The translations under genes and the position numbers were made by a program. A stretch of DNA of 64,000 nucleotides from a virus (Duplodnaviria > Caudoviricetes): positions 1-64,000 of the IMG/VR virus record IMGVR_UViG_3300020460_000013, one strand, 5' to 3'. This document shows positions 42,191 to 62,166 of the stretch, in pieces. Under the pieces are notes generated by a model. That model was given only the letters and a program-made list of their open reading frames with translations. It had not been told where the DNA came from and did no database searches. The first letter of the stretch is position 1. Each line of letters begins with the position of its first letter.

Positions 42191-42219
42191 ATTATACACT
42201 GATTCGTTTTGTATGTCAA
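42191..42219 (-). promoter_or_regulatory. sigma70-type early promoter with YGATTCG in the spacer
   Basis: TTGACA-17-TATAAT, perfect consensus. Confidence 0.9.
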
Positions 42220-42227
42220 GTAAATAA

Positions 42228-42524
42228 TTAAAATCTTGTAAAAAAACAATCATGTCCTAGATCATTATCTTCTAGGATTATATCTCGTACTCTTTCTCTA
42301 TCTAAGGAGTCACCACCACCCCAAGTAATATCGTCACGCAGATCAGCTATATACTTGTGTGTTGCATCTACAACCATATCTTTAGTCAATCCCTCAATAG
42401 GATAAACACCATCAACATGATTGTAAAAAGACCAAACATAACTAACAAACATTTGTGTTTCGTCTGAAACTATATTGAATTTACGATATTCAGTTTCAGT
42501 AAATTTTTCATGTACTAAGTTCAT
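42228..42524 (-). CDS. Hypothetical early protein (98 aa)
   Basis: YVWSFY..G.YP...GGDSLDRERVRDI motif; coupled to the upstream gene. Confidence 0.75.
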   Translation of the reverse strand: MNLVHEKFTETEYRKFNIVSDETQMFVSYVWSFYNHVDGVYPIEGLTKDMVVDATHKYIADLRDDITWGGGDSLDRERVRDIILEDNDLGHDCFFTRF

Positions 42525-42949
42525 TACGCAGCCTCCATAACTTCATAAGATTTATCCCACTTACCAACTTCGATATGCATATAGTATGCAGTATCAAAAT
42601 AATCTGTCATGGCATCTGAATTATCATACCATGCTTTCCCACCATTTAAAGCAGGAGCAACTTTCATAATTCTATAAACTTTATCTAAGATTTTTGCGTT
42701 TTCTATTCCATAGAAATCTGTTGTATAGAAATGATTGATCTGATGATGTTCACCATCATTTAAAGAACCAACTTTCATTTCGCCAGTATATTTATCTCTG
42801 TATTCCCAATCTTTAAAAGAAGGGCCTTTCATAAATGAAACAGTAACACTGTAAATACTATCTCGTCTTACAGAAAATTTATACTGTGGAAATTCTTTCT
42901 TTAAAGTATTTCGGATATGTTTAACATCATTAGTTGAAATATATGCCAT
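42524..42949 (-). CDS. LPD29-like early protein (141 aa)
   Basis: IRNTLKKEFP.YKFSVR...SDAMTDYFD.AYY motif. Confidence 0.7.
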   Translation of the reverse strand: MAYISTNDVKHIRNTLKKEFPQYKFSVRRDSIYSVTVSFMKGPSFKDWEYRDKYTGEMKVGSLNDGEHHQINHFYTTDFYGIENAKILDKVYRIMKVAPALNGGKAWYDNSDAMTDYFDTAYYMHIEVGKWDKSYEVMEAA

Positions 42950-42981
42950 TCGTTTCTCTCTCTTTCTCTTGTTTACGAATC

Positions 42982-43010
42982 ACTATACCATGTTCTGAGA
43001 ACAAAGTCAA
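42982..43010 (-). promoter_or_regulatory. sigma70-type early promoter (repeat copy 1)
   Basis: TTGACT-17-TATAGT with TGn, followed by GATTCG. Confidence 0.85.
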
Positions 43011-43018
43011 GTCTTTTT

Positions 43019-43210
43019 TTAAGAAAAATCAACGAAAGGTTGAACACCAACAATTTTTGCAATTTTATTTAAGGTTTTCTGACCAGAGCTGGACATTCTT
43101 TCAAACTCCCAACCTAAGTCATTGACTAAATCTGGTAAAGTTTTTTTAATTTTAGCAAGTTCACCTAATCTAGATTGAATTTCATTTAATTGCTTTTCAG
43201 TAAGTTTCAT
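43019..43210 (-). CDS. Hypothetical early protein (63 aa)
   Basis: Has its own promoter and RBS; LGWEFERMSSSG motif. Confidence 0.75.
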   Translation of the reverse strand: MKLTEKQLNEIQSRLGELAKIKKTLPDLVNDLGWEFERMSSSGQKTLNKIAKIVGVQPFVDFS

Positions 43211-43242
43211 AATATATACTCTCTTTCTTTTGTTTACGAATC

Positions 43243-43271
43243 ACTATACCATGTTCTGATAACAATGTCAA
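43243..43271 (-). promoter_or_regulatory. sigma70-type early promoter (repeat copy 2)
   Basis: TTGACA-17-TATAGT with TGn, followed by GATTCG. Confidence 0.88.
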
Positions 43272-43480
43272 GAAACTTTTACGGCTATATAAATGCAAAG
43301 TGCAAGGATTATTAATTTACCATAGTCGAGATCAAATCGTGTACCCTCACCATACTGATTATCCCACATCTCTTTCATAGTTTTTCTTTTCTTCTTAATC
43401 TTATAATGTATGGTGGGTTCTTCTATCTGTCCATCATCTAACAGATCTTGGGCTGGTGTTCCAAATGGTTTACTACTCAT
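43268..43480 (-). CDS. Small membrane-anchored protein (70 aa)
   Basis: AGGAG RBS; hydrophobic C-terminus. Confidence 0.7.
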   Translation of the reverse strand: MSSKPFGTPAQDLLDDGQIEEPTIHYKIKKKRKTMKEMWDNQYGEGTRFDLDYGKLIILALCIYIAVKVS

Positions 43481-43494
43481 ACTCTATCTCCTTA

Positions 43495-43836
43495 TTACTG
43501 AGTCATCAAACGATAATAATCATGTAAAGGATCTTTTTCCTCAACATGATCTTCTCCTAATTCATATGCATTGATAGAATACTTCTCTTTGTATTCATCA
43601 TAATACTGCATTGCGTTATTAATCACTTCCCATTTATCATAACTATCTTTACAATGATTCTCTTGCCACCAGAAGAATCCATTAATCAAAAAACAAAAAT
43701 TCCATCTATTTTGTAATTGTCGAAAGTACTGTCTTGCGCTCACAGTTTGATTATTCTTTCCACCAAAGAAAGTATTTACAAAGATACTCCAACTTATACA
43801 AACTCTTCCGAACCATTTTCCGATTTTTTGAATCAT
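43495..43836 (-). CDS. Hypothetical protein (113 aa)
   Basis: N..FGG..NQTVSAR...FFWWQENHC motif. Confidence 0.7.
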   Translation of the reverse strand: MIQKIGKWFGRVCISWSIFVNTFFGGKNNQTVSARQYFRQLQNRWNFCFLINGFFWWQENHCKDSYDKWEVINNAMQYYDEYKEKYSINAYELGEDHVEEKDPLHDYYRLMTQ

Positions 43837-43845
43837 TTTTTTATC

Positions 43846-44349
43846 CTACATTCCACCACTTATATATCCATTCTGACCTCGACACATACTTGCCATCAGA
43901 GCAAAGAGAGGATCATTTTTATTTGCTGGATCGTATCCCATATGATCTATATACTCGTCTTGCAGACGAAACGCATCAGCTTCTAATTGTTGTTTACATT
44001 CCACCACTTCATAATATCCATTGTGATACTGCAAGTAATGTACTAACTCATGTATCAGTACCACTTCGTAAAAATTTTTCTCAATCATACCACCTGTCGG
44101 TTTTGTTGCAATTGCAATAATGTCAGTACGATTATCATAATAGCCTGCAATATCGCATGGGTATGTCAATTTAAACTCTTTACAGATTGATTCGTTTGAC
44201 ATAACTTGTACTGTGGGTAGAGGTGTGCCTGTGTAAGAGTATTCACTATTGTTTTCTATGAACCCTATCAGTTCATACATCTGTGATTCTTTTGCGATTA
44301 TCTCTTGAACTACAAGAACAAAAATTAAAAGTAACAAAGGTTTTCTCAT
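43846..44349 (-). CDS. Exported HExxH protein (DUF6647-like zincin fold)
   Basis: Signal peptide; VLIHELVHYLQ...LEADAFRLQ. Confidence 0.7.
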   Translation of the reverse strand: MRKPLLLLIFVLVVQEIIAKESQMYELIGFIENNSEYSYTGTPLPTVQVMSNESICKEFKLTYPCDIAGYYDNRTDIIAIATKPTGGMIEKNFYEVVLIHELVHYLQYHNGYYEVVECKQQLEADAFRLQDEYIDHMGYDPANKNDPLFALMASMCRGQNGYISGGM

Positions 44350-44762
44350 GGCATTGTGAATAAGGCTCTAATACCCAACTTATCTGCTGGTGTTGTGTGT
44401 ATTGGTGTTCGTGCAAAGACAACCCATTTATAAGACCATGACATTAAATCATTTGGATAATGTTCATCAATAAAATCTATAAAGGATTTACCTGTCGTAA
44501 ATACATCATCTACTAACATTGGCTGATGTGTCGGATCACCTGTCGCATATTTTCTTAATGCATCTGCAAGAGGAATGCCACCTCTAGGAATACCCTCTAC
44601 AGATCTAAATGGTTCTGTCTGATATGTCATAATGATAGAAGCAATACTATTCCAATCTTTCATATCAAACGCATCACACTCTAATTTAAATTTAAGAGTA
44701 TTACCAGAGTGAGAAGTAAACTCACCATATTCAAATAATCTTGCTTCAGTTCTGTGTGTCAT
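44346..44762 (-). CDS. Type I phosphoribosyltransferase (orotate PRTase-like)
   Basis: FTSHSG, GIPRGG, LVDDVFTTGKS PRPP-binding motif. Confidence 0.88.
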   Translation of the reverse strand: MTHRTEARLFEYGEFTSHSGNTLKFKLECDAFDMKDWNSIASIIMTYQTEPFRSVEGIPRGGIPLADALRKYATGDPTHQPMLVDDVFTTGKSFIDFIDEHYPNDLMSWSYKWVVFARTPIHTTPADKLGIRALFTMP

Positions 44763-44955
44763 ATTGACTCTCTGTTCCTTGAACTGTCCATGGCATATCT
44801 TCTGTATCTTCTTTAGGTAGATAGACTAAAACAGAAGCTTTGCATTGTTCATTCGGACATGAGAGATTAGTGACCATAGAATATTCTAACTCATCATCAT
44901 TTGCGTCATGATCGCCGCCCCATATCAACTCTGTATTACAATGCCAACAATTCAT
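44746..44955 (-). CDS. Zn-ribbon protein (69 aa)
   Basis: CWHC..LIWGGDHD..NLSCPNEQC. Confidence 0.8.
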   Translation of the reverse strand: MNCWHCNTELIWGGDHDANDDELEYSMVTNLSCPNEQCKASVLVYLPKEDTEDMPWTVQGTESQYDTQN

Positions 44956-45035
44956 ATATTTTTCTGTATCTTTATTGCATTTATAGATTATGATTGGCTG
45001 CCCAGTTTTAGGGGGGCGGCCGAATCATTTCTATT

Positions 45036-45064
45036 ATTATATCATACTATATAGTGCGTGTCAA
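45036..45064 (-). promoter_or_regulatory. sigma70-type early promoter
   Basis: TTGACA-17-TATAAT with TGn; TGATTCG near +1. Confidence 0.9.
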
Positions 45065-45072
45065 CTCATTTG

Positions 45073-45354
45073 TCAACCCATTGCGTTATAATATCCCTCA
45101 CAAGAACAATGTGTCACACCACCTGATTCGTTTTGCACAACCAACTCTGCACCTGTAAACCAGATACACGCTTCATTATAAGACGCATACATCTCTGTAG
45201 GAATGTAACAAGTAAAGGGCATCTTCCAATCTTTATCATCACATATCTCATCAAACAACTTCTTGTTCTCAGCTTGTTGTAGAAACAAGTCAGACTTCAA
45301 TGCCTCATCAAACTGTAATAGTTCTCCTATAGATGTTTCTTTTGTCATTAACAA
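45073..45354 (-). CDS. Hypothetical early protein (93 aa)
   Basis: DWKMP...ACIWFTG...GYYN motif; GGAG RBS. Confidence 0.75.
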   Translation of the reverse strand: MLMTKETSIGELLQFDEALKSDLFLQQAENKKLFDEICDDKDWKMPFTCYIPTEMYASYNEACIWFTGAELVVQNESGGVTHCSCEGYYNAMG

Positions 45355-45590
45355 CTCCTCAATCTCTTTCCTAAATCATTATCATTGTAGTCACCCTTAC
45401 TCGCCCAATTGCGAAATGCAGAACATTCTGTGATGTTCTGCATACACTGGAGAGAAAGAGGACACGAATCACAAGGACAATTTTTCTTATTCTCTGGCCC
45501 TGTGTGCATCTCTGTAGTATTATAGACAGACTCCGAATCACTCGAATCTCTACCCATATAACATTCTGAATCCCAATCGGATATAATCAT
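45348..45590 (-). CDS. Cys-rich hypothetical protein (80 aa)
   Basis: CPCDSC..C..ECSAF; promoter and AAGGTG RBS upstream. Confidence 0.7.
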   Translation of the reverse strand: MIISDWDSECYMGRDSSDSESVYNTTEMHTGPENKKNCPCDSCPLSLQCMQNITECSAFRNWASKGDYNDNDLGKRLRSC

Positions 45591-45624
45591 AATCGAATCA
45601 CCTTATATCATTCCTAGCATAGTC

Positions 45625-45653
45625 AGTATATCAACTTGTCAAGAGTTTGTCAA
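45625..45653 (-). promoter_or_regulatory. sigma70-type early promoter
   Basis: TTGACA-17-TATACT with TGn; CTCTTGACAA is duplicated. Confidence 0.85.
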
Positions 45654-45736
45654 GAGATATTTGATAATAATATGGCCGCATACACACCCACAATTATTAA
45701 CCACATGACTATTGCTACTATTAAAAATCGAATCAT
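45650..45736 (-). CDS. Putative leaderless 28-aa transmembrane peptide
   Basis: MIRFLIVAIVMWLIIVGVYAAILLSNIS; the ATG is 7 nt after the -10 box. Not in the ORF track. Confidence 0.5.
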   Translation of the reverse strand: MIRFLIVAIVMWLIIVGVYAAILLSNIS

Positions 45737-45742
45737 ATTCAT

Positions 45743-45771
45743 ACTTTACACCGATTCGTTCTCTCTGTCAA
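45743..45771 (-). promoter_or_regulatory. sigma70-type early promoter with CGATTCG in the spacer
   Basis: TTGACA-17-TAAAGT; spacer AACGAATCGGTG resembles that of the 42191 promoter. Confidence 0.8.
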
Positions 45772-45784
45772 GTGAAAAAACCCC

Positions 45785-45813
45785 TTGACAAAAAAAAATT
45801 TTCGTGATAGAAT
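45785..45813 (+). promoter_or_regulatory. Divergent plus-strand sigma70-type promoter
   Basis: TTGACA-17-TAGAAT with TGn; no credible plus-strand CDS follows. Confidence 0.8.
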
Positions 45814-45846
45814 ACACCCTTTAATGCACAAAAGAAAACACCTAAC

Positions 45847-45922
45847 TACCTTTTTTTATACCTTTTTTAATATTGTACGCAAATCCCATTTTATCCCACG
45901 ATTTCCCATGAATCTACGCAAA
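45847..45922. repeat. Short phased repeats: TACCTTTTTT x2, TCCCA x3 at 10-bp spacing, TACGCAAA x2
   Basis: TCCCA at 45884, 45894 and 45904. Confidence 0.6.
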
Positions 45923-46507
45923 GTTTCTTCTCTCTGTAGGAGTGATGTTATATCCGAATATATGGCCATCACTTATTTTCATTTCTTTAACTTGATCATA
46001 ACATTTTTTATGAGAAAAATACTTGTTTTTGGTTTTATATCTTTTTATAACGTCTTTACTCACTACAATGAGTTTATTTCGTTCATAGTTCATATACACC
46101 ATAAGAAAACGAGGATCATCTTCTAGAAAATGATCTTTTCTTCCTAGAAAATGAAGATGTTTATAGTATGAAGGCCAATCACCTTTCCATTGTGACCATC
46201 TTTCTACGTCTATATGAAGAAGTCTTTTATCATCATTCACAAGAGCGAGATCAATACCATACTTACCATCTGGTTTGATTTTCCATCTGCAATGAGGCCA
46301 TTGTTTCATATGGAATTGTACTGATGAGCATGAATTGACATATCGTAGAATATAGGTTTGAAGATCACGATTGTTCTTTGTATGTTCAATAAAAGTTTCG
46401 CAATCTGAATCGTCATCATAATTGTTTTGTCGGTCTGAATAACTACCCCATTTATTTTTCATTTGTTTGGTCACTTGCATATTAATAGTTCGCCTCCCAT
46501 GAGTCAC
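45914..46507 (-). CDS. Hypothetical protein, possible PD-(D/E)xK nuclease-like fold
   Basis: KYGIDL...IDVE pattern; the true start is probably a later Met. Confidence 0.55.
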   Translation of the reverse strand: MTHGRRTINMQVTKQMKNKWGSYSDRQNNYDDDSDCETFIEHTKNNRDLQTYILRYVNSCSSVQFHMKQWPHCRWKIKPDGKYGIDLALVNDDKRLLHIDVERWSQWKGDWPSYYKHLHFLGRKDHFLEDDPRFLMVYMNYERNKLIVVSKDVIKRYKTKNKYFSHKKCYDQVKEMKISDGHIFGYNITPTERRNFA

Positions 46508-46712
46508 ATATACTTCTTAATGTCATACTTACATATCCTTCATAACAATCATCACTCTCTGCAAAGGTAGATATTTCATCAATTTGTTCTTGATTCAACT
46601 CTTCTACTTCTTCGACTCCATATTGTTCTCTGATATCTTCCCATACCCAATCATATGTAAGTGATTCTATTTGATCTTGTAACTTATGCATTTTGTTCAC
46701 TTTAAATGTCAT
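46482..46712 (-). CDS. Acidic hypothetical protein (76 aa)
   Basis: GAGG RBS; fits the operon spacing. Confidence 0.7.
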   Translation of the reverse strand: MTFKVNKMHKLQDQIESLTYDWVWEDIREQYGVEEVEELNQEQIDEISTFAESDDCYEGYVSMTLRSICDSWEANY

Positions 46713-46717
46713 ACTTA

Positions 46718-46909
46718 TTACCTCTTCTGGTCTGTTATTACTGTCGTAAATGCACCGATAGCTGCACCCTCTTCACACTTACCAAATGCGACTTCACCTA
46801 ATATACATCCAGCAGCTGTATTTCCTAGTAGTCTTTGACCCTCTTTGGTTACATAGTTTGTACTACACGCACCTAATAATAGTCCTATTAATATACAGTA
46901 TTTCATCAT
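46718..46909 (-). CDS. Small lipoprotein with glycine-zipper-like segment (63 aa)
   Basis: LLGAC lipobox; GxxxG helices. Confidence 0.7.
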   Translation of the reverse strand: MMKYCILIGLLLGACSTNYVTKEGQRLLGNTAAGCILGEVAFGKCEEGAAIGAFTTVITDQKR

Positions 46910-47511
46910 GTTATTCTCCTTTCACTATAATGATAATTTTTTGTTGCACTTGTATCGAAATCAAACCCCCAATAGTCTATGTCCTGTTTATACCAATCAG
47001 CGACTATTTGTATGGTTTGTTCGTTATTATAATAATCTTGGTAATTTCTTGTATAGTCACCTACATTTTCTATGACAATATATGGTGTATTCAGATTCAG
47101 ATAAGGACTCAATTCGTCATCAATAAATTCTAATCTTAATATATCACAGCGTACTATACCACTCTCGTCACAGACATAATCATATTGTGTACTCCAGCTT
47201 CTGATGGGATCAACAACTGAATGTATATCGACTTTCCATACATATCTGGTTTCTAGAAACTCTTCAAAAGTATTCCATTTTACTCCATGATCATTTGTAT
47301 TTGAAGTAGGTATTCCCATGACATATCTTGATACCATTCTGGCCCAAGGATTACGAATCACTGCAAAAGATTGATATATGTATCGTATATCTCTAGGAAC
47401 ATCTCTCCATCTATAATGACCGAATGAGAGTGCGTTTGTCATTTCTTTGTGTACTGACGTTCCACCATTCTTGGGTATGTGTATGAAGAGTCTTTTTACT
47501 TCTTTTTCCAT
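46906..47511 (-). CDS. Sulfotransferase family 2 protein
   Basis: FIHIPKNGGTS (5'-PSB) and IRNPWARMVS (3'-PB) motifs. Confidence 0.85.
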   Translation of the reverse strand: MEKEVKRLFIHIPKNGGTSVHKEMTNALSFGHYRWRDVPRDIRYIYQSFAVIRNPWARMVSRYVMGIPTSNTNDHGVKWNTFEEFLETRYVWKVDIHSVVDPIRSWSTQYDYVCDESGIVRCDILRLEFIDDELSPYLNLNTPYIVIENVGDYTRNYQDYYNNEQTIQIVADWYKQDIDYWGFDFDTSATKNYHYSERRIT

Positions 47512-47732
47512 AATCTCTTCTCTAGTTCATTGTATCCACCAATGTATTCGTCATCAATGAAGATCGCTGGTACTTGTTTGATGTTGGGGTAATTGTCTTT
47601 GAACTCTATCAGATGATTGATATCGTCTAGGAGTTTTTCTTCGTATTCGACTCCATAATAATCTAACATAGACTTGGCTCGGACGCAGAATTGACAAGGT
47701 GGTTTGCGTCTGGAGTACATCAATATTTTCAT
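47496..47732 (-). CDS. Glutaredoxin
   Basis: CQFC, QVPAIFID..IGGY. Confidence 0.92.
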   Translation of the reverse strand: MKILMYSRRKPPCQFCVRAKSMLDYYGVEYEEKLLDDINHLIEFKDNYPNIKQVPAIFIDDEYIGGYNELEKRLWKKK

Positions 47733-47965
47733 GTATCATCCTCTATCATATAATTTTTAAGATCCATGATCTTTTCGTGTTCAATCAATTCAAGTATTGT
47801 TTCTGTGATCTCTTTTTCTTTTCGTAGGAAGAAGAGTTTTTCTTCGATAATCTTGAGCTGACTTTCGTACTTCTCAATCTCTCGTTGTTTTTGTAACTTA
47901 CTTTCTATTAGATCTGTGATAAAAATAATCTTTTTACTTTTGTTATTCGTCATCATACATTGCAA
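47729..47965 (-). CDS. Coiled-coil hypothetical protein (78 aa)
   Basis: K/E-rich heptads; ATGA overlap. Confidence 0.7.
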   Translation of the reverse strand: MQCMMTNNKSKKIIFITDLIESKLQKQREIEKYESQLKIIEEKLFFLRKEKEITETILELIEHEKIMDLKNYMIEDDT

Positions 47966-48032
47966 TCCATACTAACCAAGCCAATATCCATGTTATACCC
48001 ATAAAAATGATAAGATAAAAAATTATCATCAT
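47943..48032 (-). CDS. Putative 29-aa transmembrane peptide
   Basis: MMIIFYLIIFMGITWILAWLVWIAMYDDE; fills the gap with an ATGA overlap. Not in the ORF track. Confidence 0.55.
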   Translation of the reverse strand: MMIIFYLIIFMGITWILAWLVWIAMYDDE

Positions 48033-48208
48033 CTTATATCATACCAATGCACCCTATCATTAATATATACCACCACAGGTATCAATAAACATACCAACAT
48101 ACACCAATTTAGACCATCCCAAGGCACGAATAGATGATACCAAAAGTCAAAATGAAATGGGTGCATTGTTCCATAATCAGTTCCCTCGTAGTAATAATTC
48201 GTTGTCAT
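48029..48208 (-). CDS. Small membrane protein (59 aa)
   Basis: Probable start MTTNYY after GGAG; hydrophobic C-terminal half. Confidence 0.55.
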   Translation of the reverse strand: MTTNYYYEGTDYGTMHPFHFDFWYHLFVPWDGLNWCMLVCLLIPVVVYINDRVHWYDIR

Positions 48209-48536
48209 AGTGTTTGTTCTCTCTCCATTCTTGTCCACCATACGGACTTATTGGTCGTTTATATAGAGGATTGAAGTCCTTGAGTTCTGGTTTTGTGTCT
48301 GTAGAAGATTGTGTTGTTGCATGAACACAACCCATTTCGACTACGTGCATTCTAGATTTGTAGGTATTTTTTGCATACTGTAACACACCAGAATGTAGAT
48401 TGACCTCGTTTCCACGATAAAATGACTCGCATTGAGCCTGATTATCAAACGTCAAATTCCAACTGATTAAGAGTTCGGTGTCCTTTACAAACCCCTCATA
48501 ACCCATGATTGCATAAAATATAATAGCCCATTTCAT
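48177..48536 (-). CDS. Hypothetical exported protein (119 aa)
   Basis: Hydrophobic N-terminus; F.....C...C pair. Confidence 0.7.
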   Translation of the reverse strand: MKWAIIFYAIMGYEGFVKDTELLISWNLTFDNQAQCESFYRGNEVNLHSGVLQYAKNTYKSRMHVVEMGCVHATTQSSTDTKPELKDFNPLYKRPISPYGGQEWRENKHYDNELLLRGN

Positions 48537-48802
48537 TTCTTTTTCGCTTCCTTTTTATCCCACTTTTCTTTATCTCTTCGTCTATCGAATGTCAGTTCTT
48601 GACGCATTTTTAGTTGATTCATAAACTTATCTTTGATCTTTGGATTGTTACCAGATGCACTGATAAACCAACGAATGGCCTCATACGAGAACCCTTTGAA
48701 CAGTAATTTTTCACCTCTGTACAGTACTCCTGTTGCATTTTCTAACTCTAATTTGTACTCACCATAGTTATAATAAAGCGTTCTATGCCCCGTTATACCC
48801 AA
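48533..48802 (-). CDS. Hypothetical protein (89 aa)
   Basis: Overlaps both neighbours in the operon. Confidence 0.65.
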   Translation of the reverse strand: MGITGHRTLYYNYGEYKLELENATGVLYRGEKLLFKGFSYEAIRWFISASGNNPKIKDKFMNQLKMRQELTFDRRRDKEKWDKKEAKKK

Positions 48803-48977
48803 AGTATTCTATTCCCCCACCATGTTGATCATAGTCATATTTGTTCTCAATACGTGCAATCTGGTCTTTCAACACCAACTTTTCTTTCTTAATATCTCTA
48901 CGTTCTTCATCTGTTAATATATCGTTTTCTAGTCTTTCTTCCAATTTCTGATGTTCTTTTCGTAGAGCATTAAGCAT
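48783..48977 (-). CDS. DUF465-like coiled-coil protein (64 aa)
   Basis: EH..L...IKKEKLVLKDQI motif. Confidence 0.7.
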   Translation of the reverse strand: MLNALRKEHQKLEERLENDILTDEERRDIKKEKLVLKDQIARIENKYDYDQHGGGIEYFGYNGA

Positions 48978-48986
48978 ATGAATCTC

Positions 48987-49238
48987 CTATTTTTTCTTTT
49001 TGGTTTTCTTCAGAGCGGCTCGTAACGCTCTCTGAAAGTTGATTTCTTCTTGGTCTATTTCTTCATTAGATATAGGTTTAGGTTCTTCCGAAACACTCTT
49101 TCTTGTTCTCGGAACAACCTCTTCTGGTATCTCGACAATCTCGTTCTCGTTATTATCACCATATAAATGTTTGTGTTTTCGTTTGAATTTTTGTATACGA
49201 TACTTGAGCTGTCTAACTCTTTCATCCATATCATACAT
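48987..49238 (-). CDS. Hypothetical charged protein (83 aa)
   Basis: ORF in operon context. Confidence 0.65.
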   Translation of the reverse strand: MYDMDERVRQLKYRIQKFKRKHKHLYGDNNENEIVEIPEEVVPRTRKSVSEEPKPISNEEIDQEEINFQRALRAALKKTKKKK

Positions 49239-49249
49239 AAAAGTATTTA

Positions 49250-49453
49250 TTAAGTTAGGTACTCCTCTTCTGTACTATCAATGTAGTCATTTTGACCCAT
49301 GAACTTTCGATTAACTGTGACTCTTTTTACTCGTACATTACCATCCTCTTCTTCTAGTATGTACTTTGTATGTTCCTCTTTAATGAGTTTACCATTCTGT
49401 TTACTCATGAATCGGTCATGACCCCATATGTCAATTACATTATCGTCACTCAC
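49250..49453 (-). CDS. Hypothetical protein (67 aa)
   Basis: GAGGAG RBS, GTG start. Confidence 0.7.
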   Translation of the reverse strand: MSDDNVIDIWGHDRFMSKQNGKLIKEEHTKYILEEEDGNVRVKRVTVNRKFMGQNDYIDSTEEEYLT

Positions 49454-49456
49454 AAT

Positions 49457-49831
49457 TTATCTCCTCTTACCAGTGGCCGAATTTTTTGCGTCAACACTAG
49501 ATAAAACTTGGAGTCCACCCTTGTTGTACGCTTGTCCTATGACCACATTTCCTTTATATATAGGAGTTTCTTTGACAAAACCATTACCGATTGCGTCAGA
49601 TGTCTTGACCTTTGCAGTATATGTCCGCTGATCTATCGTACCACCACGACCTTTGACAGTGGTTTTACCATGTTTATACGCAACAAACTCCTCTAGTGTC
49701 AACATAGGGAGTTTCATACGTTTCAAAAACTTGTTGTGTTCACGCATTTCTGACTCGTACTTGCGTGTGTCTACTCTCTTACGCTTGCGTTTGAGATTAG
49801 TAGTCGTATAGTAGATAGGTAATATGTGCAT
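49457..49831 (-). CDS. Conserved T4-like hypothetical protein (124 aa)
   Basis: MHILPIYY start; IGQAYNKGGLQVL motif. Confidence 0.8.
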   Translation of the reverse strand: MHILPIYYTTTNLKRKRKRVDTRKYESEMREHNKFLKRMKLPMLTLEEFVAYKHGKTTVKGRGGTIDQRTYTAKVKTSDAIGNGFVKETPIYKGNVVIGQAYNKGGLQVLSSVDAKNSATGKRR

Positions 49832-50029
49832 CTATCTACTAATAGGATGAATACAAATTGCAGTAGTTATGGCCGCAAGACCATAACCAAACCATGCAAA
49901 CATTTCAGATAAAGTAAGTGCATTGTCCATACACTTACCATCACAATCTGCACCAGCAGTACCAAGTATTATGAGAATACCTATGATACCGATACTCCAA
50001 GACAGTATAACTCTAAAATTATACCACAT
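49832..50029 (-). CDS. Two-TM membrane protein (65 aa)
   Basis: Two hydrophobic helices around a DCDGKC loop. Confidence 0.7.
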   Translation of the reverse strand: MWYNFRVILSWSIGIIGILIILGTAGADCDGKCMDNALTLSEMFAWFGYGLAAITTAICIHPISR

Positions 50030-50313
50030 TAAGCAGCCTCCAACATTGTAAATGGAACTTGATATGTTGCAGTTTCGCCAGTAATTGGTGATCTTACCAT
50101 ATCGACAAGTGCTCTTGTCTTGTTGATTTTGACCACAGTACCAGGCGTCTTTTTTGTTTTCTGAACAACATAGACTCTCATACCTACTTTTATGTCTGAT
50201 TTTGCTTTCATAGTCTTGATATCTCTACACATACCCATAACTTCAGTTAGTTCACTAGGTGTCATAGTGTGTAGTATTTCTGATACTTTTCTCATGTTAG
50301 TAATAGTAACCAT
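50029..50313 (-). CDS. SH3-like early protein (94 aa)
   Basis: VGMRVYVVQKTKKTPGTVVKIN.TRALV...YQVP. Confidence 0.75.
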   Translation of the reverse strand: MVTITNMRKVSEILHTMTPSELTEVMGMCRDIKTMKAKSDIKVGMRVYVVQKTKKTPGTVVKINKTRALVDMVRSPITGETATYQVPFTMLEAA

Positions 50314-50507
50314 TATATATTCTCCTTGTTATCAAAATCTTCAATTACTAATTCATCTTCATAATCTTGCAGACTTGATGCAACTGCGAACTCTAGACGC
50401 AATGCAACATATGGACTTGTTTTTACAAGTTCTGCAGCCATATTCTCTATTTCTATAGGACTTAAATTTTGTAGTGTCTTTACTGCAAGTTTAGTTCTTA
50501 CTGACAT
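50313..50507 (-). CDS. Hypothetical early protein (64 aa)
   Basis: First gene after a promoter; GAGG RBS. Confidence 0.7.
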   Translation of the reverse strand: MSVRTKLAVKTLQNLSPIEIENMAAELVKTSPYVALRLEFAVASSLQDYEDELVIEDFDNKENI

Positions 50508-50530
50508 TTTTACCTCTCTGTTTACGAATC

Positions 50531-50559
50531 ACTATATCATATATATTGTTTCGTGTCAA
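50531..50559 (-). promoter_or_regulatory. sigma70-type early promoter
   Basis: TTGACA-17-TATAGT with TGn, followed by GATTCGTAAACA. Confidence 0.88.
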
Positions 50560-51095
50560 GTCCTATATAGACCATGTGCATAAACCATATTGATATTTTT
50601 AACCAAGTCTGCATATGAGTCTTGATTGGCCTGATATAGAAACCCTATTCCACCAGCTTTTTCCCACTTCTCAATGTTACTAGGTTTATCATCAACCAAA
50701 ATATTTGGTGAACCATCAATAGGATTGGTTGCATATTGTTCTTTCTGACGAGTGAATATTAAATTCTCAATCGCAGGGGGCATCAAATCATTGTCCTCTA
50801 ACCACCTTCTCTTGTGGTATGCAGAGTTATCCCTATCACCCCTTAATGGTGACGAACATATTCCCCACTGACCTTTTGACCTTGTTTCTACAAAGTTTAC
50901 TAAATCATATGTATCTTCAAATATTGATAGTGTGTAAAAGAAGTCAGTACCTATGAGTTCTTGTAATGACTTGTCTTTTCTTGGAATCTCTTTCCAATGA
51001 TCTCTATTGAACTTCTTTGCAAATGCACCAAAGAAGTCTGCAAGGACTCCGTCCATGTCTAAGTATAAAATTGTTGCATTTCCTACTTTTTTCAT
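50556..51095 (-). CDS. HAD-family 5'(3')-deoxyribonucleotidase-like protein
   Basis: YLDMDGVLADF, SSP, K..WL, ILVDD motifs; start moved to MKKVG after GGAG. Confidence 0.88.
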   Translation of the reverse strand: MKKVGNATILYLDMDGVLADFFGAFAKKFNRDHWKEIPRKDKSLQELIGTDFFYTLSIFEDTYDLVNFVETRSKGQWGICSSPLRGDRDNSAYHKRRWLEDNDLMPPAIENLIFTRQKEQYATNPIDGSPNILVDDKPSNIEKWEKAGGIGFLYQANQDSYADLVKNINMVYAHGLYRT

Positions 51096-51096
51096 A

Positions 51097-51261
51097 TTAT
51101 ATTTTCTCCATAGTAATTTTTTTATCATCCCACTTGAGAAGTTCTAAATTAAACATTGGAAAACAATGTTTAAAGTTTTCCATCTGTGACATTTCTTTTT
51201 TGGTCAAGCCAGTTATTGTCATGATGGTTTTTTTACCAATTGTCTTTGTTGTAATTTTCAT
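51097..51261 (-). CDS. Small early protein (54 aa)
   Basis: MKITTKTIGKKTIMTITGLTKKEM...; has a promoter and AAGGTG RBS. Not in the ORF track. Confidence 0.6.
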   Translation of the reverse strand: MKITTKTIGKKTIMTITGLTKKEMSQMENFKHCFPMFNLELLKWDDKKITMEKI

Positions 51262-51289
51262 AACGAATCACCTTTCTCTCTATACTATT

Positions 51290-51318
51290 AATATACCTGT
51301 TTTCATAACAAATGTCAA
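51290..51318 (-). promoter_or_regulatory. sigma70-type early promoter
   Basis: TTGACA-17-TATATT, T-rich upstream element, TGATTCG at the RBS. Confidence 0.85.
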
Positions 51319-51323
51319 CCCCT

Positions 51324-51357
51324 AAAAACAAAAAAACCTCAAAAAGATGAGGTTTTT
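51324..51357 (-). terminator. Intrinsic terminator between the late OMP gene and the early block
   Basis: AAAAACCTCA/TGAGGTTTTT inverted repeat with U-tract. Confidence 0.75.
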
Positions 51358-51382
51358 CTGAAAAATATATTGATGTATTATA

Positions 51383-51778
51383 TTAGAATGATATAGTCGC
51401 ACCTAACTTAATGTCTTTTCTTTCTGACGCATCAATATCCCAGCTTGTTTTACCATATACTTCTACAGGTAATGGAATCATATCACCCATATCGTATGTT
51501 AACTCTAGATTAATGTTTGGTCTATTTCCCTCATCTAAAGTGTCAAACAACATAAAACTGTCGGTTGCAGAGGAGTCGTATATAGAAATAAGTGTACCAA
51601 TTGATAGTTCTAACTGATCATGATTCCACTCAATTTCTGGTTCATACTTCATGATTGTATTTTCATTGTCAACTGAATATTCAGCTGTAACATCATGACT
51701 ATGAGAAAGTTCTGCAACTGTATACGTTGCAAAGAGTAACACAGCGAGAAACGCTGTCAGACTTGATAGTAATTTCAT
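51383..51778 (-). CDS. Small outer-membrane beta-barrel-like protein (131 aa)
   Basis: Signal peptide, alternating beta pattern, C-terminal LGATISF. Confidence 0.65.
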   Translation of the reverse strand: MKLLSSLTAFLAVLLFATYTVAELSHSHDVTAEYSVDNENTIMKYEPEIEWNHDQLELSIGTLISIYDSSATDSFMLFDTLDEGNRPNINLELTYDMGDMIPLPVEVYGKTSWDIDASERKDIKLGATISF

Positions 51779-51826
51779 GTGAGATTTTCCTTATTCTATT
51801 TGTGGACATTGTGTCACACAAAGACA

Positions 51827-51834
51827 TATTTATA
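51827..51834 (-). promoter_or_regulatory. Late promoter TATAAATA
   Basis: Exact intergenic motif. Confidence 0.7.
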
Positions 51835-51835
51835 A

Positions 51836-52501
51836 TTATCTTTTCTTTAATCTTAACTGTTTAGATATCCAAGACTTAGCGATTGTATTATTCACTTTCT
51901 TCTTAACAAGTATCATACATCTCTTCCATACTTTCTTGAATACATCTTCACCAGCATCATTGTTGTCTACAACTATAAAATTACTTGAACCAAATAGTGT
52001 TTGAAATTTACCTATGTTATTTTGAACTGCATTCCACATCTTCGCAACTTGAACTTCTGGTAGAGTTCTAGACCTCATCTTATTTCTTTCTTGTGCAGTA
52101 TCTAGTGATGTATTAACAAATATCATGTATGTTTCATATCCTAATGCACGTAATCCTCTTACTTGTTGTGATATTTTATCATACTCTCTACCTGTACCAT
52201 CAATGATAACTCCTAGTCTACCCTTTAGAAAGTTCCCTTGCATACGGGCCGTAACCTCTTTCGCTTTAACTCTTATATCTTGACCTTGATCAGAATATAT
52301 ATCCTCTGGTGTTGTTTCCAACCCAGCGTCCTTTAACATCTTTTCGTATATATCGTCAGAGTTTACAATCTTCATACCCAATCCACCTGTAGATCTTCTT
52401 ACTACATATGACTTACCAGATCCTGGCCCGCCTGCAAGAAATATCGCTTTAAATATATTGGGGTCGTAAACTCCTTCCTGTATTTGTTGAAATGTTTTCA
52501 T
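51836..52501 (-). CDS. Zeta-toxin-like P-loop kinase
   Basis: FLAGGPGSGKS, VNSDD, IIDGTG, A.ERN..R.R motifs. Confidence 0.82.
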   Translation of the reverse strand: MKTFQQIQEGVYDPNIFKAIFLAGGPGSGKSYVVRRSTGGLGMKIVNSDDIYEKMLKDAGLETTPEDIYSDQGQDIRVKAKEVTARMQGNFLKGRLGVIIDGTGREYDKISQQVRGLRALGYETYMIFVNTSLDTAQERNKMRSRTLPEVQVAKMWNAVQNNIGKFQTLFGSSNFIVVDNNDAGEDVFKKVWKRCMILVKKKVNNTIAKSWISKQLRLKKR

Positions 52502-52646
52502 GTTTTATTCCTAACAACTCCATAGTTTGTTCTTTATATAATTGTTCATAGTATTTAGTTTCCTCATTATCCTGTGTCTGTATTGTTCGATTGGTTTGTT
52601 TTTGAAACGTCATTTTGTGTACACGATTTTTGAGTTTTGCTGTCAT
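52449..52646 (-). CDS. Hypothetical protein (65 aa)
   Basis: GAGG RBS, but a long overlap with the kinase start. Confidence 0.45.
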   Translation of the reverse strand: MTAKLKNRVHKMTFQKQTNRTIQTQDNEETKYYEQLYKEQTMELLGIKHENISTNTGRSLRPQYI

Positions 52647-52706
52647 GGTAGCCTCTTTCTATGGTTAATAAATTATCATAACGAATGAGTTGTTATCATC
52701 TCCTTT

Positions 52707-54140
52707 CTAAAATGTTACTTCTGAAGGATCTTCAGAACCTAGTGGTATTCTATAGTCACCCTCGTTACCTTGATCTTTAATGGTAACTCCAGAACTTGGG
52801 AATGGTGACTTAACTGTATCTCTTACACAATCCATTACTATTCTGTGTATAGGAGAACCTTCTGCATATGTAAATTTATGTAATAAATTTCTGATTAGAT
52901 ACTTTCCTGTCATACTTTCATCAGATAAATCTAGACCTATGAGATCACCTACTTGTAATGTTGTGTTGCCTGGAATTGTAACTCTTAATGATAGTGCAGA
53001 GTCTAAAGATGCAAATCTAGATGATCTTCTTTGTAACCATTGGTCTGTACCCATATAATCATATTGTGATCTCTCACCCCAAGCTGGATTAAACATACCA
53101 TTTGCAACATTTCTTTCTATCATCTGCACATGAAGAACAGAGTCTGGATAATCTCCAATTTGTTTACCATACTGATCCATTGCAGTAGACGCTACTGGAG
53201 ATTTAGTAGATCCATATTTATTATATTGATCGACATGAATATCCCTGTCAAAATCCTGTAAATAATTGTAATCAAACTCTTGGTAATCTTTATTAAAAAT
53301 ATCTAACAACACTAGTCTTGACCCATACATACCAGACAATCTACTTGACATAGTGTCGGTTGTTGACATTACTTGTATATCTAGAATATTTGTTAATTTA
53401 GCAATAACTCCCTCTTCATTATCCCTTAAATCTATTTCTTGTGGTGATACTTCACGATAGACACCTTTTGGATTTTTTCTATCCATCATACTGTCTATTG
53501 TTCTAAAAAAATAACCTTTGGTTGTTTCATAGAATAAAAATGATGGTGCATAGTCATATTCTTTGGATAAACATCTTTTCGATAAATTTACTATGAAATC
53601 AAATGGGTGCATATTTGGTGAAACAAGTTTAAAATGATTATTCGTAACTTCATAATAAAATTCTTTTTTAGATGCAATTAAATCATCATCTCTTAAAATA
53701 TTTTGAATGATATCTTCTGATGGCTCACCCTCATATGATTTGACAACACGCACATGATTATTTCTGATAAATTCTGGTGTAGTAAAGTGCAACATAAATG
53801 CATCTGTATTTTCATTGACTCCAACTTTATCGTCAATTTTATAAACGTATAATGGTGTTTCAGTATAATTAATGATACGATTTCTATCACCTGTATCATC
53901 AGCGTTCGGTGTTGACAGTTTAAGTTTAAGTTTTTCTTGACCTATAATACCTATATCTTTGTTACCTAATAAATTATTAGTGTCTTGGAAAGATATAGTT
54001 CCACTTACAGATGTAGAGAAAAGATCTTCATATATGTTTATATCTGCAACTAGTTCAGTTAAGTCAAGTTCTAAACCACTTACTGTACAAAGTGTACATT
54101 CTTCTAGTTGAAATTCACCAGCGTATTGTATGACAGCCAT
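52707..54140 (-). CDS. Baseplate hub / tail protein, gp27-like (477 aa)
   Basis: INIYEDLF..SG.I..D, FLFYET..G.FFR.I, IPGNTTLQVGD; follows gp53. Confidence 0.75.
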   Translation of the reverse strand: MAVIQYAGEFQLEECTLCTVSGLELDLTELVADINIYEDLFSTSVSGTISFQDTNNLLGNKDIGIIGQEKLKLKLSTPNADDTGDRNRIINYTETPLYVYKIDDKVGVNENTDAFMLHFTTPEFIRNNHVRVVKSYEGEPSEDIIQNILRDDDLIASKKEFYYEVTNNHFKLVSPNMHPFDFIVNLSKRCLSKEYDYAPSFLFYETTKGYFFRTIDSMMDRKNPKGVYREVSPQEIDLRDNEEGVIAKLTNILDIQVMSTTDTMSSRLSGMYGSRLVLLDIFNKDYQEFDYNYLQDFDRDIHVDQYNKYGSTKSPVASTAMDQYGKQIGDYPDSVLHVQMIERNVANGMFNPAWGERSQYDYMGTDQWLQRRSSRFASLDSALSLRVTIPGNTTLQVGDLIGLDLSDESMTGKYLIRNLLHKFTYAEGSPIHRIVMDCVRDTVKSPFPSSGVTIKDQGNEGDYRIPLGSEDPSEVTF

Positions 54141-54141
54141 A

Positions 54142-54669
54142 TTATTTTCTCAATAGTTGTTGTATTTCTCTCTTTATTTGAGGAATATATTCTGGTTTTA
54201 TAACTCTTATTTGTCTTTTATTATCCTCTGCTCTTTCTGCATAATTATAGTTTGTAACTATAACTGCGTCCTCTGGTATGGTATTTGCAGAGTCACTTGG
54301 TATTTCTATTACTTTAGTCGTATCACCAGATGTTTGTTTCACTTCATAATGATGAACTGCATCTGGATTATCATACAGTTCTTGTAAGTTTCTGTCAAAT
54401 GTTGCATTTGTGAGTGGCCAATCATGATAATAATCCATTACATCATTTGCAAGTAATAGAACCCAATGAAGTTTTTCGTCATTGTAAAACGCTTTCGCTA
54501 AAAATTCTGGAGTCTGACCAGATTGTACATCATAGTAATCAAATGTAACATTGTATCTTTTAACAAGATCTTTAAATCTAACTTTTCTTGTTATTTCTAA
54601 AAAAGTAGTCTTTGTACCATTATCTAATACATCTACTTCTATAGTAGGAAAATTTGAAAAAAATGACAT
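54142..54669 (-). CDS. gp53: Baseplate wedge subunit gp53
   Basis: FFSNFP, G.TPE.LA..Y.D..LHWVLLLAN..DWP, VHHYE. Confidence 0.9.
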   Translation of the reverse strand: MSFFSNFPTIEVDVLDNGTKTTFLEITRKVRFKDLVKRYNVTFDYYDVQSGQTPEFLAKAFYNDEKLHWVLLLANDVMDYYHDWPLTNATFDRNLQELYDNPDAVHHYEVKQTSGDTTKVIEIPSDSANTIPEDAVIVTNYNYAERAEDNKRQIRVIKPEYIPQIKREIQQLLRK

Positions 54670-54671
54670 GA

Positions 54672-55553
54672 TTAAAAACCTTCTGCAATTTTCTCTTTTG
54701 TTATGATACCAAGTTCTCTAAACTGTAAGGTTAGTTCTGTTTCCACTGGTTGATCATCAACAAAAAATTGTGTTCTTTCTCCACCATATTTTACCTGTAC
54801 TGACTCTAATGCACATTCGTCAATTCTATGTAAGTGTCTGCCAGGTACATATGAAATATCAAATGTGGATGGTACTTCCATTGTTCTACCACCAACACCA
54901 CCCTCTACAGGAAATTCAGGCATTGCATGATATCGAAATAATGTAACAATTTCTTTAATTATTTGTGCTTCTTCTGAACTTTTTGGTAACATTCTAAAAG
55001 TAAATGCAAATGCTCTCCTATCAATACCTTCAAACTTTAATTCAGTTCTATTGTTTGTAACTCTTCCTTTACCCAATTCTAAAGCTGCTTTTGCACCTGT
55101 TACACCAAGTCCTTCAGCAACATTTGCAACTAATCTTGATCCTTCTGCAGCCACAGCACTTGCAACTCTATCAGCAGTTTCTTTTGAGTTTATATTATCT
55201 TGATTTATTGCATTACCAGCTGCAAGTAATCCAGCGACTATTAACCCTATCTCTGTGTCTGCATAATTTACTTTGTGTGATACTTCAATAGTGGGTGGCA
55301 TCTGTATTTGAATTGTTGAATTTAAAGTTTTTCTAGGTGGTCTTGGAACTGTTATATATTCATTACCACCAATACCACTTGCGTCTATTGCTCCACTACC
55401 ATAACTTATAGTTGGTTGTTCTCGTACTCTTATTTGAAATTGAATGTAATGACTACTACTTTTACCATCTACATCTAGTGGATATTGATAAGAAGTCCTA
55501 TTTGCAGTGATGTGTGATTTTTGTCCATCAGTTCCTATGATTAATTGAGCCAT
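54672..55553 (-). CDS. gp48: Baseplate tail-tube cap gp48
   Basis: N..ELKFEG..R.F.F.F...PKS..EA..I..I...FR; LTLQFRE. Confidence 0.88.
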   Translation of the reverse strand: MAQLIIGTDGQKSHITANRTSYQYPLDVDGKSSSHYIQFQIRVREQPTISYGSGAIDASGIGGNEYITVPRPPRKTLNSTIQIQMPPTIEVSHKVNYADTEIGLIVAGLLAAGNAINQDNINSKETADRVASAVAAEGSRLVANVAEGLGVTGAKAALELGKGRVTNNRTELKFEGIDRRAFAFTFRMLPKSSEEAQIIKEIVTLFRYHAMPEFPVEGGVGGRTMEVPSTFDISYVPGRHLHRIDECALESVQVKYGGERTQFFVDDQPVETELTLQFRELGIITKEKIAEGF

Positions 55554-55595
55554 ATAAATAGTCCTAAATATATTATGGTTTCAATAGTATTTATA
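55553..55595. promoter_or_regulatory. Face-to-face late promoters
   Basis: TATAAATA on + at 55553-55560 and on - at 55588-55595. Confidence 0.75.
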
Positions 55596-55599
55596 CATC

Positions 55600-56028
55600 A
55601 TGACATACAAAGGTAGATATATTCCCTCAAAACCTAGAAAATATAAAGGTGACCCATCAAACATAATTTATAGAAGTTTATGGGAACGTAAATTTATGGT
55701 CTATTGTGATAGAAATGATGCAATATTAGAGTGGGGCAGTGAAGAAATAATCATACCATATAAGTCACCTCTTGATGGTAGAATACACAGGTACTTTCCA
55801 GATTTCTATGTAAAAGTAAAACAAAATGATGGTACTATTAAAAAGATGATTATAGAAGTTAAACCAAAGAAACAATGTAAACCACCTGTCGGTAAAAAGA
55901 AAACCAAATATTATATAAAAGAAGTTCAGACATGGGGTGTTAATAAAGCCAAGTGGGAATATGCGTTAGAGTGGTGTAAAGATAGAAATATGGAATTTAA
56001 AATTCTAACAGAAGATCATCTTGGTTAA
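55600..56028 (+). CDS. gp4: Head completion nuclease gp4
   Basis: KYKGDP.NI.YRSLWE..FM..CD, HRYFPDF, IEVKP. Confidence 0.95.
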   Translation: MTYKGRYIPSKPRKYKGDPSNIIYRSLWERKFMVYCDRNDAILEWGSEEIIIPYKSPLDGRIHRYFPDFYVKVKQNDGTIKKMIIEVKPKKQCKPPVGKKKTKYYIKEVQTWGVNKAKWEYALEWCKDRNMEFKILTEDHLG

Positions 56029-56032
56029 GTCA

Positions 56033-56040
56033 TATAAATA
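56033..56040 (+). promoter_or_regulatory. Late promoter TATAAATA
   Basis: Exact motif, but only 5 nt before the ATG. Confidence 0.6.
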
Positions 56041-56045
56041 GGAGT

Positions 56046-56618
56046 ATGACAGAATTAATTGAAGGTATACTAAAGAAAACTGGTGGTAAAGATAGATCAA
56101 TTCGTTGGTTTCGTGAGAAAGTCAAAGAGTTGGGTGAAGTACCACCACAAAGACTTATTCGTGAAGGAATAGTTACAGCCAGACCTACGTTTGGTACTAT
56201 GAACTTTTTTATGTATAGTCCTAAGAATAAAGACAATGTTGACATACTACCATATTATGATAGATTTCCTTTAGTCATGCCCATTGAACAATATAACAAT
56301 GGTTTTCTAGGTTTAAACTTTCACTACCTATCCATACCCATGAGATTAAAACTTCTAAACATCATTAGTGAATATGCAAGTAATGATAAGTTAGATGAAA
56401 CTACTAGAATAAGATTAACATGGAATAGAGTAAAAAGAAATCCAATTGTAAAACCTACAGTAAAAAGATATCTTGCAGATCATGTAAGAACTGCATTTCG
56501 TAGAATTAATGCAGATGAAATGATGGTTGCAGTTTTATTACCTGTGCAAAGATTTGTAAGAGCAACTGAAACAAAAGTTTATGCAGACTCAAGAATGTCT
56601 GCAAATAGGAGAGGATAA
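56046..56618 (+). CDS. gp2: DNA end protector gp2
   Basis: LPYYDRFPLV, FLGLNFHYL, VKRYL..HV. Confidence 0.93.
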   Translation: MTELIEGILKKTGGKDRSIRWFREKVKELGEVPPQRLIREGIVTARPTFGTMNFFMYSPKNKDNVDILPYYDRFPLVMPIEQYNNGFLGLNFHYLSIPMRLKLLNIISEYASNDKLDETTRIRLTWNRVKRNPIVKPTVKRYLADHVRTAFRRINADEMMVAVLLPVQRFVRATETKVYADSRMSANRRG

Positions 56619-57262: not shown

Positions 57263-57283
57263 ATTATAGGAGAAAATTAAATT

Positions 57284-58182: not shown

Positions 58183-58201
58183 ATAGAACAAGGAGAACAC
58201 T

Positions 58202-58324: not shown

Positions 58325-58377
58325 TGGTAGACTTTATATCACTCAAACATCACTTGGATTATAGAGAGGAAAGTAAA

Positions 58378-58704: not shown

Positions 58705-58713
58705 GACAGAGAA

Positions 58714-60588: not shown

Positions 60589-60589
60589 T

Positions 60590-61072: not shown

Positions 61073-61107
61073 CCTCTCTCCTTTAGATCACAGTACTATT
61101 TAGGGAT

Positions 61108-62160: not shown

Positions 62161-62166
62161 TATATT

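Follow-up and report, generated by a model that had tools for sequence, protein, structure and literature searches.

We analyzed a stretch of 64,000 nucleotides (nt) from an uncultured tailed virus (Duplodnaviria, Caudoviricetes; positions 1 to 64,000 of the IMG/VR record IMGVR_UViG_3300020460_000013). This stretch, called the window below, is the first 64 kb of a contig of 101,321 bp (G000) that is rated about 63% complete. Between about 42 and 51 kb it holds eight strong minus-strand sigma70 promoters, each of which carries the word YGATTCG, nearly always as TGATTCG. Judged from the sequence, these words are best read as boxes for the host protein GcrA in early promoters, which we consider fairly likely, and the phage probably borrows host GcrA to start infection. 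This reading is preferred because of the exact word, its position and orientation in the spacer, the occurrence of single asymmetric sites, their conservation, and the ties of the lineage to hosts with both GcrA and the methyltransferase CcrM.

Distribution of the word and its position in promoters

An exact word search found 14 matches to YGATTCG in the window (13 TGATTCG and one CGATTCG), all within 42,200-51,270. These are the same 14 copies that an initial annotation of this DNA had listed over about 9 kb. No match was found in 1-42,199 or in 51,271-64,000, and the remark of that annotation that the 41-kb structural block lacks the word was therefore correct. When the window was shuffled 100 times with its dinucleotides kept, the word occurred 3.59 times on average and nine times at most. 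A Markov model predicted about 5-6 copies per 101-kb contig, or about 0.5 per 9 kb. Thus, the enrichment proposed earlier is confirmed, whereas the earlier estimate of one to two chance copies in about 9 kb was generous. The regional k-mer comparison suggested at that time agreed with this result: CGAATCA/TGATTCG was the most enriched 7-mer of 42-52 kb relative to the rest of the contig, and all eight copies of GTGATTCG in the contig fell within 42-52 kb. Past the window, four further copies at 69144, 69769, 69986 and 73136 bring the total to 18, and 17 of the 18 are TGATTCG.

Promoters were scanned with the hexamers alone (TTGACA-like, a spacer of 16-18 nt, TAnnnT). The first base of the -10 hexamer was numbered -12, and transcription starts were assumed from the -10 box. 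The scan recovered eight minus-strand promoters in the window, with -35 boxes starting at 42219, 43010, 43271, 45064, 45653, 45771, 50559 and 51318. All eight have TTGAC(A/T), a 17-nt spacer and TAnnnT, that is, the elements of housekeeping sigma70 promoters. A box was found at every one of them (8/8), as the initial annotation had stated for the minus-strand promoters of this region. The promoters and the remaining copies of the word are as follows.

42191..42219, minus strand: P1, class A; TTGACA, 17 nt, TATAAT; CGAATCA on the non-template strand at 42200-42206, centre -19
42976..43010, minus strand: P2, class B; TTGACT, 17 nt, TATAGT, then directly GATTCGTAAAC; box at 42976-42982, centre -4
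43237..43271, minus strand: P3, class B, a paralogue of P2; box at 43237-43243, centre -4
45021..45064, minus strand: P4; TTGACA, 17 nt, TATAAT; sense box at 45021-45027, centre +5
45594..45653, minus strand: P5; TTGACA, 17 nt, TATACT; sense box in the leader at 45594-45600, centre +21
45729..45771, minus strand: P6, with two boxes; TTGACA, 17 nt, TAAAGT; antisense CGATTCG (plus strand) at 45752-45758, centre -19; sense box at 45729-45735, centre +4
50525..50559, minus strand: P7, class B with an unrelated spacer; TTGACA, 17 nt, TATAGT, then GATTCGTAAAC; box at 50525-50531, centre -4
51264..51318, minus strand: P8; TTGACA, 17 nt, TATATT; sense box in the leader at 51264-51270, centre +16, 2 nt before an ATG
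44188..47360, both strands: five copies away from recognisable promoters, from the word search, at 44188 (plus), 45124 (plus), 45465 (minus), 45534 (minus) and 47354 (minus)

Four more promoters at 69-73 kb (69178, 69788, 70005 and 73170) hold the four extra copies of the contig and belong to the same two classes. In the spacer group, which includes class A (42219, 45771, 69788 and 70005), the box is centred at -19 and the non-template strand shows CGAATCA. In class B (43010, 43271, 50559, 69178 and 73170), a sense box is centred at -4, and TGATTCG begins with the final T of the -10 hexamer. The downstream boxes are in sense orientation at +4 (45771), +5 (45064), +16 (51318) and +21 (45653). 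The box of P5 lies 3 nt upstream of the ATG of an 80-amino-acid (aa) open reading frame (ORF), and an overlapping alternative promoter (TTGATA/TGATAT) would put this box at about +3.

In total, promoters account for 13 of the 18 copies, and chance alone would give the contig about as many as the remaining five. Under a stricter promoter definition (TTGAC[AT], 17 nt, TAnnnT, at most one mismatch), 10 of the 17 promoter-like sites of the contig carry the word, and GATTCGT is the commonest 7-mer outside the hexamers of these promoters.

Some other features of these promoters were observed. The spacer of P2 contains a near-palindrome, TGTTCTCAGAACA; the form TGTT(C/A)TCAGAACA is found in the spacers of both P2 and P3 (42990-43004 and 43251-43265, minus strand), and a near-palindrome of this type is also present in a promoter adjoining a methyltransferase gene of the relative G001, which is described below. 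It may be a second, separate operator. The sole reading frame between P6 and P5 is a hydrophobic mini-ORF of 18 codons (MWLIIVGVYAAILLSNIS; 45650-45706, minus strand), which runs at its end into the -35 box of P5. A divergent sigma70-like promoter without a box of its own lies back to back with P6, at 45785-45813 on the plus strand (TTGACA, 17 nt, TAGAAT).

Conservation in relatives and recurrence in other phages

The baseplate proteins (gp5, gp6 and others) identify the phage as a T4-like myovirus. By gp6 identity, its cultured relatives are as follows.

Methylophilales phage Melnitz, host OM43, 56%
Pelagibacter phage Mosig, host SAR11, 49%
Pelagibacter phage HTVC008M, host SAR11, 45%

The gene order beside the early region is also that of Melnitz. 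On these protein and gene-order comparisons, the phage is an uncultured marine relative of Melnitz and the pelagimyophages.

A closer relative is G001, a 145-kb IMG/VR contig rated 95% complete, which is colinear with the present contig at about 80-93% nucleotide identity. It shows the same clustering of the word, and the copies at 45124, 45465 and 45534, which are not at promoters, are retained in it. Five relatives have a neighbouring gp5 OB-domain protein that is 82-99% identical, and 13 of their 14 near-consensus promoters were boxed. A further comparison used promoters ascertained by their hexamers alone. In class A (12 distinct promoters), AACGAATC and GT do not change, in contrast to the first four or five bases of the spacer; in class B (10 distinct promoters), four unrelated spacers precede an unchanging GATTCGTA. 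At least six unrelated sequence contexts thus contain the word (class A, the four class B spacers, P4, P5, P6 and P8). Because box bases are invariant beside varying spacers, and because nearly all near-consensus promoters of these relatives are boxed, this sequence comparison argues that the boxes are under selection. Duplication of cassettes accounts for part of the repetition, but not for the preservation of the word itself.

In more distant relatives (50-62% identity), the word is found at one promoter only, which is that of a conserved RNA element. In the window, this structured RNA element lies at 44940-45027 (minus strand) directly downstream of P4, by which it is driven. An intergenic stretch of Melnitz matches it at 88% identity over 61 nt, and it is found again in Mosig and many relatives. 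The element opens with a hairpin, and the TGATTCG box is in the 5' arm of this hairpin. An E-value search of Rfam gave no credible family for it.

Under the strict definition, the boxed promoters number 10/17 in the present contig, 9/22 in G001, 0/34 in Melnitz, 0/16 in Mosig and 0/15 in HTVC008M. Among these five genomes, promoter boxes are therefore specific to the clade of the first two. Mosig has 21 copies of YGATTCG, which are mostly intragenic. The whole genome of HTVC008M (KC465899.1) contains no YGATTCG and only 43 GANTC sites where about 250-335 would be expected, a depletion of about 6-8-fold. These two observations suggest that GANTC matters differently among SAR11 phages. In G001, a segment at 56-80 kb that is absent from our contig holds about 10 good sigma70-like promoters without a box. 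Boxed and unboxed sigma70 promoters thus coexist, and they are possibly two temporal classes.

We also searched IMG/VR for the class A pattern and found it in 93 stretches belonging to 48 sequence families. Two controls showed it to be over-represented: the reversed core gave 41 stretches in 23 families, and moving the core by 4 nt gave 27 in 15. In 34 of the 48 families, CGAATC is followed by a purine. The pattern occurs across lineages that differ in G+C content, and the box-rich contigs include other T4-like relatives. A family of 12 box-bearing contigs is related to the Pelagibacter podophages HTVC115P, 103P and 104P; HTVC115P itself has no class A promoter. For the box families of high G+C content, we found no informative cultured relatives, and neither a GcrA gene nor an alphaproteobacterial transfer-messenger RNA (tmRNA) was found in five box-rich contigs. 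One contig (G407, behind stretch L295; 65.5 kb, 42% G+C), which looks like an unrelated fragment of a large phage, has 32 copies of YGATTCG against three of the control word; many of its boxes are in promoter spacers, and some are doubled (CGAATCGAATCA).

Weighing of the GcrA reading and its rivals

GcrA is a monomer bound to domain 2 of sigma70. Its consensus is TGATTCG or, more broadly, YGAKTCK (Haakonsen 2015, PMC4647560). The phage word fits the YGAKTCG/K consensus, and all but one of its 18 copies are the top word. According to Wu (2023, PMC9976885), GcrA boxes are mostly at -20±1 or -30±2 in the spacer, or at +5 to +30. With the starts assumed as above, the class A spacer boxes and the downstream boxes of the phage fall in or near these positions. 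The scaffold derived from PcsM for cryo-electron microscopy has TTGACA, N7, CGAATC and TATAAT after a 17-nt spacer; in it, spacer nt 8-12 are GAATC and the template strand carries GATTCG (PMC9976885). In phage class A promoters, GAATC lies at spacer nt 9-13 in the same orientation, 1 bp off. In the PmipZ scaffold, the boxes past the start are in sense orientation (PMC9976885), as are the phage boxes at +4 to +21. Each phage promoter has one asymmetric 7-9-mer without a dyad partner, the sole two-copy case being P6, where the copies are 23 bp apart. Such single asymmetric sites fit a monomeric reader.

The lineage is tied to hosts that have the machinery. In SAR11 genomes reached via a 16S probe, full-length GcrA (PF07750, about 113-137 bits) was present in 79 of 81 Pelagibacterales genomes, or in 78 of 80 without the unpublished genome G081, on which no other result depends. 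The residues W3, W15, R33, N34, I37 and G38 of GcrA read the bases and two methyl groups (PMC5887438); SAR11 GcrA retains all of them, together with a CCCH zinc-finger sigma-binding domain. A full-length CcrM orthologue was also found in SAR11 (471 bits to 6PBD), where Gonzalez et al. had already reported CcrM (PMC3973325). Three SAR11 genomes contain 17-21 copies of YGATTCG each, against 78-91 of the reversed word, which is a four- to five-fold avoidance. The phage contig therefore holds about as many copies as a whole genome of the host type. In one SAR11 genome, its 19 sites are mostly near gene starts.

A two-piece alphaproteobacterial tmRNA was detected just past the window, at 64,559-65,176 of the contig (L009:559-1176; RF01849, 116.7 bits; ARAGORN tag ANDNFAPVDYALAA). 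We considered it as a marker of the present host and rejected it, because Melnitz, an OM43 phage, also has an alpha-type tmRNA. The tmRNA thus marks ancestry and not the present host; the authors of the Melnitz study regarded it as the trace of a past host shift from SAR11 to OM43 (PMC9004378). A BLAST search of the tmRNA against 61 SAR11 genomes matched only a conserved stretch of 33 nt. The gp6 baseplate protein was not found in 401 Pelagibacterales genomes, so the single-cell assemblies contain no phage contigs. On the GcrA reading, the host would be an alphaproteobacterium, probably of the candidate clade SAR11. A manA RNA motif (RF01745, 64.1 bits) adjoins the tmRNA. Several words are absent or very rare in the whole contig: GAGAC (0 against 55 expected), GGACC (0 against 36) and CAGTC (4 against 85), and GAATTC, GGTACC, GGATCC and GGAACC are all absent. 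This looks like avoidance of restriction sites.

The initial annotation saw no gene for a methyltransferase or GcrA in the window, and this holds for the whole contig at its completeness of about 63%. In the wider homologue search that it recommended, the contig had neither gene, but G001 was found to encode a methyltransferase in a segment absent from the contig. An ORF search found no GcrA or GcrA-DNA-binding-domain-like protein in either genome, and no DNA-binding Pfam domain was found among 30 early ORFs, most of which match no family. The enzyme of G001 is a 514-aa beta-class N6-adenine methyltransferase (PF01555, DPPY motif; G001:62414-63754, L091:1342-2886) that carries an insert of about 270 aa. 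Its gene is followed by a sigma70 promoter with TGATTCT abutting the -10 box. Only the catalytic motifs align with CcrM, so its specificity cannot be inferred; on this alignment, it is not a CcrM orthologue. Homologues at about 40% identity are spread over phages of many hosts.

The following sequence of events would account for the boxes. Injected DNA would be methylated at GANTC by the CcrM of the previous host, and possibly by a phage methyltransferase. GcrA, as a monomeric cofactor on sigma70 domain 2, would read N6-methyladenine (m6A) in GANTC at the phage boxes, and the holoenzyme of GcrA and RNA polymerase would then favour boxed phage promoters over host promoters. At these promoters, GcrA would speed the formation of both closed and open complexes. 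That the loss of methylation during replication times early transcription, as the initial annotation also imagined, would be pure conjecture.

Several observations weigh against host GcrA as the reader. Melnitz, the cultured phage nearest to this one, has OM43 as its host, and OM43 does not belong to the Alphaproteobacteria. The oligonucleotide-avoidance profile of the phage correlates at 0.61 with that of Melnitz, 0.51 with Mosig and 0.40 with HTVC008M; this host signal is ambiguous and slightly nearer to Melnitz. Both cultured Pelagibacter myophages, as given above, are without promoter boxes, and none of 61 SAR11 genomes contains the strict class A pattern. Five boxes of the contig (three in the window) are centred at -4, outside the GcrA positions listed in PMC9976885. 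The promoters are near-perfect sigma70 consensus, for which an activator seems unnecessary, and part of the repetition stems from duplicated promoter cassettes. In addition, GANTC is not clearly depleted in the phage (0.89 under a maximal-order Markov model); its depletion had looked suggestive under a low-order model and was dropped as evidence after this value. Recruitment of the host GcrA-polymerase complex, which the initial annotation proposed, is therefore supported in part: the word, its position and orientation, the single sites, the conservation, the lineage ties and the SAR11 GcrA and CcrM speak for it, and the host of Melnitz speaks against it.

The main rival explanation is that the word is the operator of a DNA-binding protein unrelated to GcrA, either a phage early shut-off protein or another host factor, possibly of a non-alphaproteobacterial host such as OM43. 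Promoters of consensus strength suit negative control, and the box positions vary (-19, -4, +4 to +21) but are all under the RNA polymerase footprint, like repressor operators on strong constitutive promoters. A novel binder could hide among the early ORFs without a recognisable family, and the host of Melnitz fits this explanation as well. However, it needs a coincidence of the top GcrA consensus word with the spacer position and the orientation of GcrA boxes. The sites are single and asymmetric, unlike typical repressor dyads, and no dyads or paired half-sites were seen. Phage lineages that differ in G+C content have the architecture in common, which speaks for a host factor that they share, and the Pfam search of the 30 early ORFs yielded no candidate protein. 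On balance, we regard such an operator as unlikely.

Less probable again, and to a similar degree, are two further explanations. The boxes could hitch-hike on mobile early-promoter cassettes, the word being functionless and a few ancestral copies having been duplicated. Class A promoters do share about 70 nt with the leader included, P2 and P3 are near-identical paralogues, and cassettes recur at 42-51 kb and at 69-73 kb. Yet the word stands in unrelated contexts, stays invariant where the neighbouring spacer bases vary, is kept in relatives at 82-91% identity, and is the most promoter-enriched 7-mer outside the hexamers; simple hitch-hiking is thus improbable. Alternatively, methylation could act without GcrA: m6A in GANTC at -5/-3 or in the spacer would alter promoter melting or sigma70 contacts, or would let another reader tell parental from replicated DNA. 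The boxes of class B, five in all, fall within the melting region (-6 to -2), where m6A would lower duplex stability, and the close relative G001 encodes a beta-class adenine methyltransferase. Nevertheless, the conserved flanks (T before, and G and T after GATTC) exceed the need of a GANTC methyltransferase and match the preference of GcrA, and the G001 enzyme, sharing just catalytic motifs with CcrM, permits no conclusion about specificity. We give this possibility little weight.

If GcrA reads the boxes, this would be the first case found of a virus that builds a host methylation reader into its core promoters, and it would provide an epigenetic route to seizing RNA polymerase. Our literature search found no paper describing GcrA-type boxes in phage promoters. 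Marine T4-like phages have no middle system of the MotA/AsiA type (PMC9004378), and the boxes could serve them as a timing device that needs no regulator. A more speculative and rather doubtful extension is that a guild of uncultured marine and aquatic phages, this myophage of SAR11 lineage among them, uses GcrA as an early-gene switch: fully methylated TGATTCG of virion DNA would capture the GcrA-polymerase complex, and unmethylated replicated DNA would lose this advantage, giving an early-to-late switch without a phage regulator. If the GcrA reading is true, the word would also allow uncultured phages with alphaproteobacterial hosts to be recognised from sequence alone. SAR11 and its relatives rank with the most numerous cells of the ocean, and it is difficult to link their phages to hosts.

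Comparison with known systems

One close likeness is to the GcrA/CcrM promoters of Caulobacter crescentus (PcsM, PmipZ and ctrA P1; PMC4647560, PMC5887438, PMC9976885). In both sets, the word TGATTCG accompanies sigma70 -35 and -10 elements, the spacer box is near -20 and reads GATTCG on the template strand, other boxes stand just past the start in sense orientation, and a promoter has one asymmetric site. Unlike those of Caulobacter, the sites described here are on a phage genome, in promoters of near-perfect consensus, with an additional class at -4, and their reader, methylation and host are putative. Their density is also different, with 18 per 101 kb in the phage against about 19 per 1.4-Mb SAR11 genome.

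The phage can also be compared with T4-type early promoters and the mobile cassettes of hyperplastic regions. Here too, strong sigma70 promoters stand before small early ORFs in repeated cassettes, and the class A and class B cassettes recur within the contig and in relatives. To our knowledge, T4-type early promoters have not been described with a conserved word in the spacer or discriminator. The T4-type relatives Melnitz, Mosig and HTVC008M are without boxed promoters, unlike this phage.

Mascolo (2022, PMC9437464) reported CtrA sites in promoters of phages of Alphaproteobacteria. The putative GcrA boxes would resemble those sites in serving a host cell-cycle regulator, and both are clustered in one region; the regulator and the mechanism differ. 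The same study scanned phage genomes for asymmetry of GcrA, SciP and DnaA sites and found none. It is also known that phiCbK-like Caulobacter phages encode GcrA homologues and that rhizobiophages encode CcrM-like methyltransferases (PMC9437464). These phages likewise engage the GcrA/CcrM module, but the phage studied here would do so by carrying the cis sites and not the regulator.

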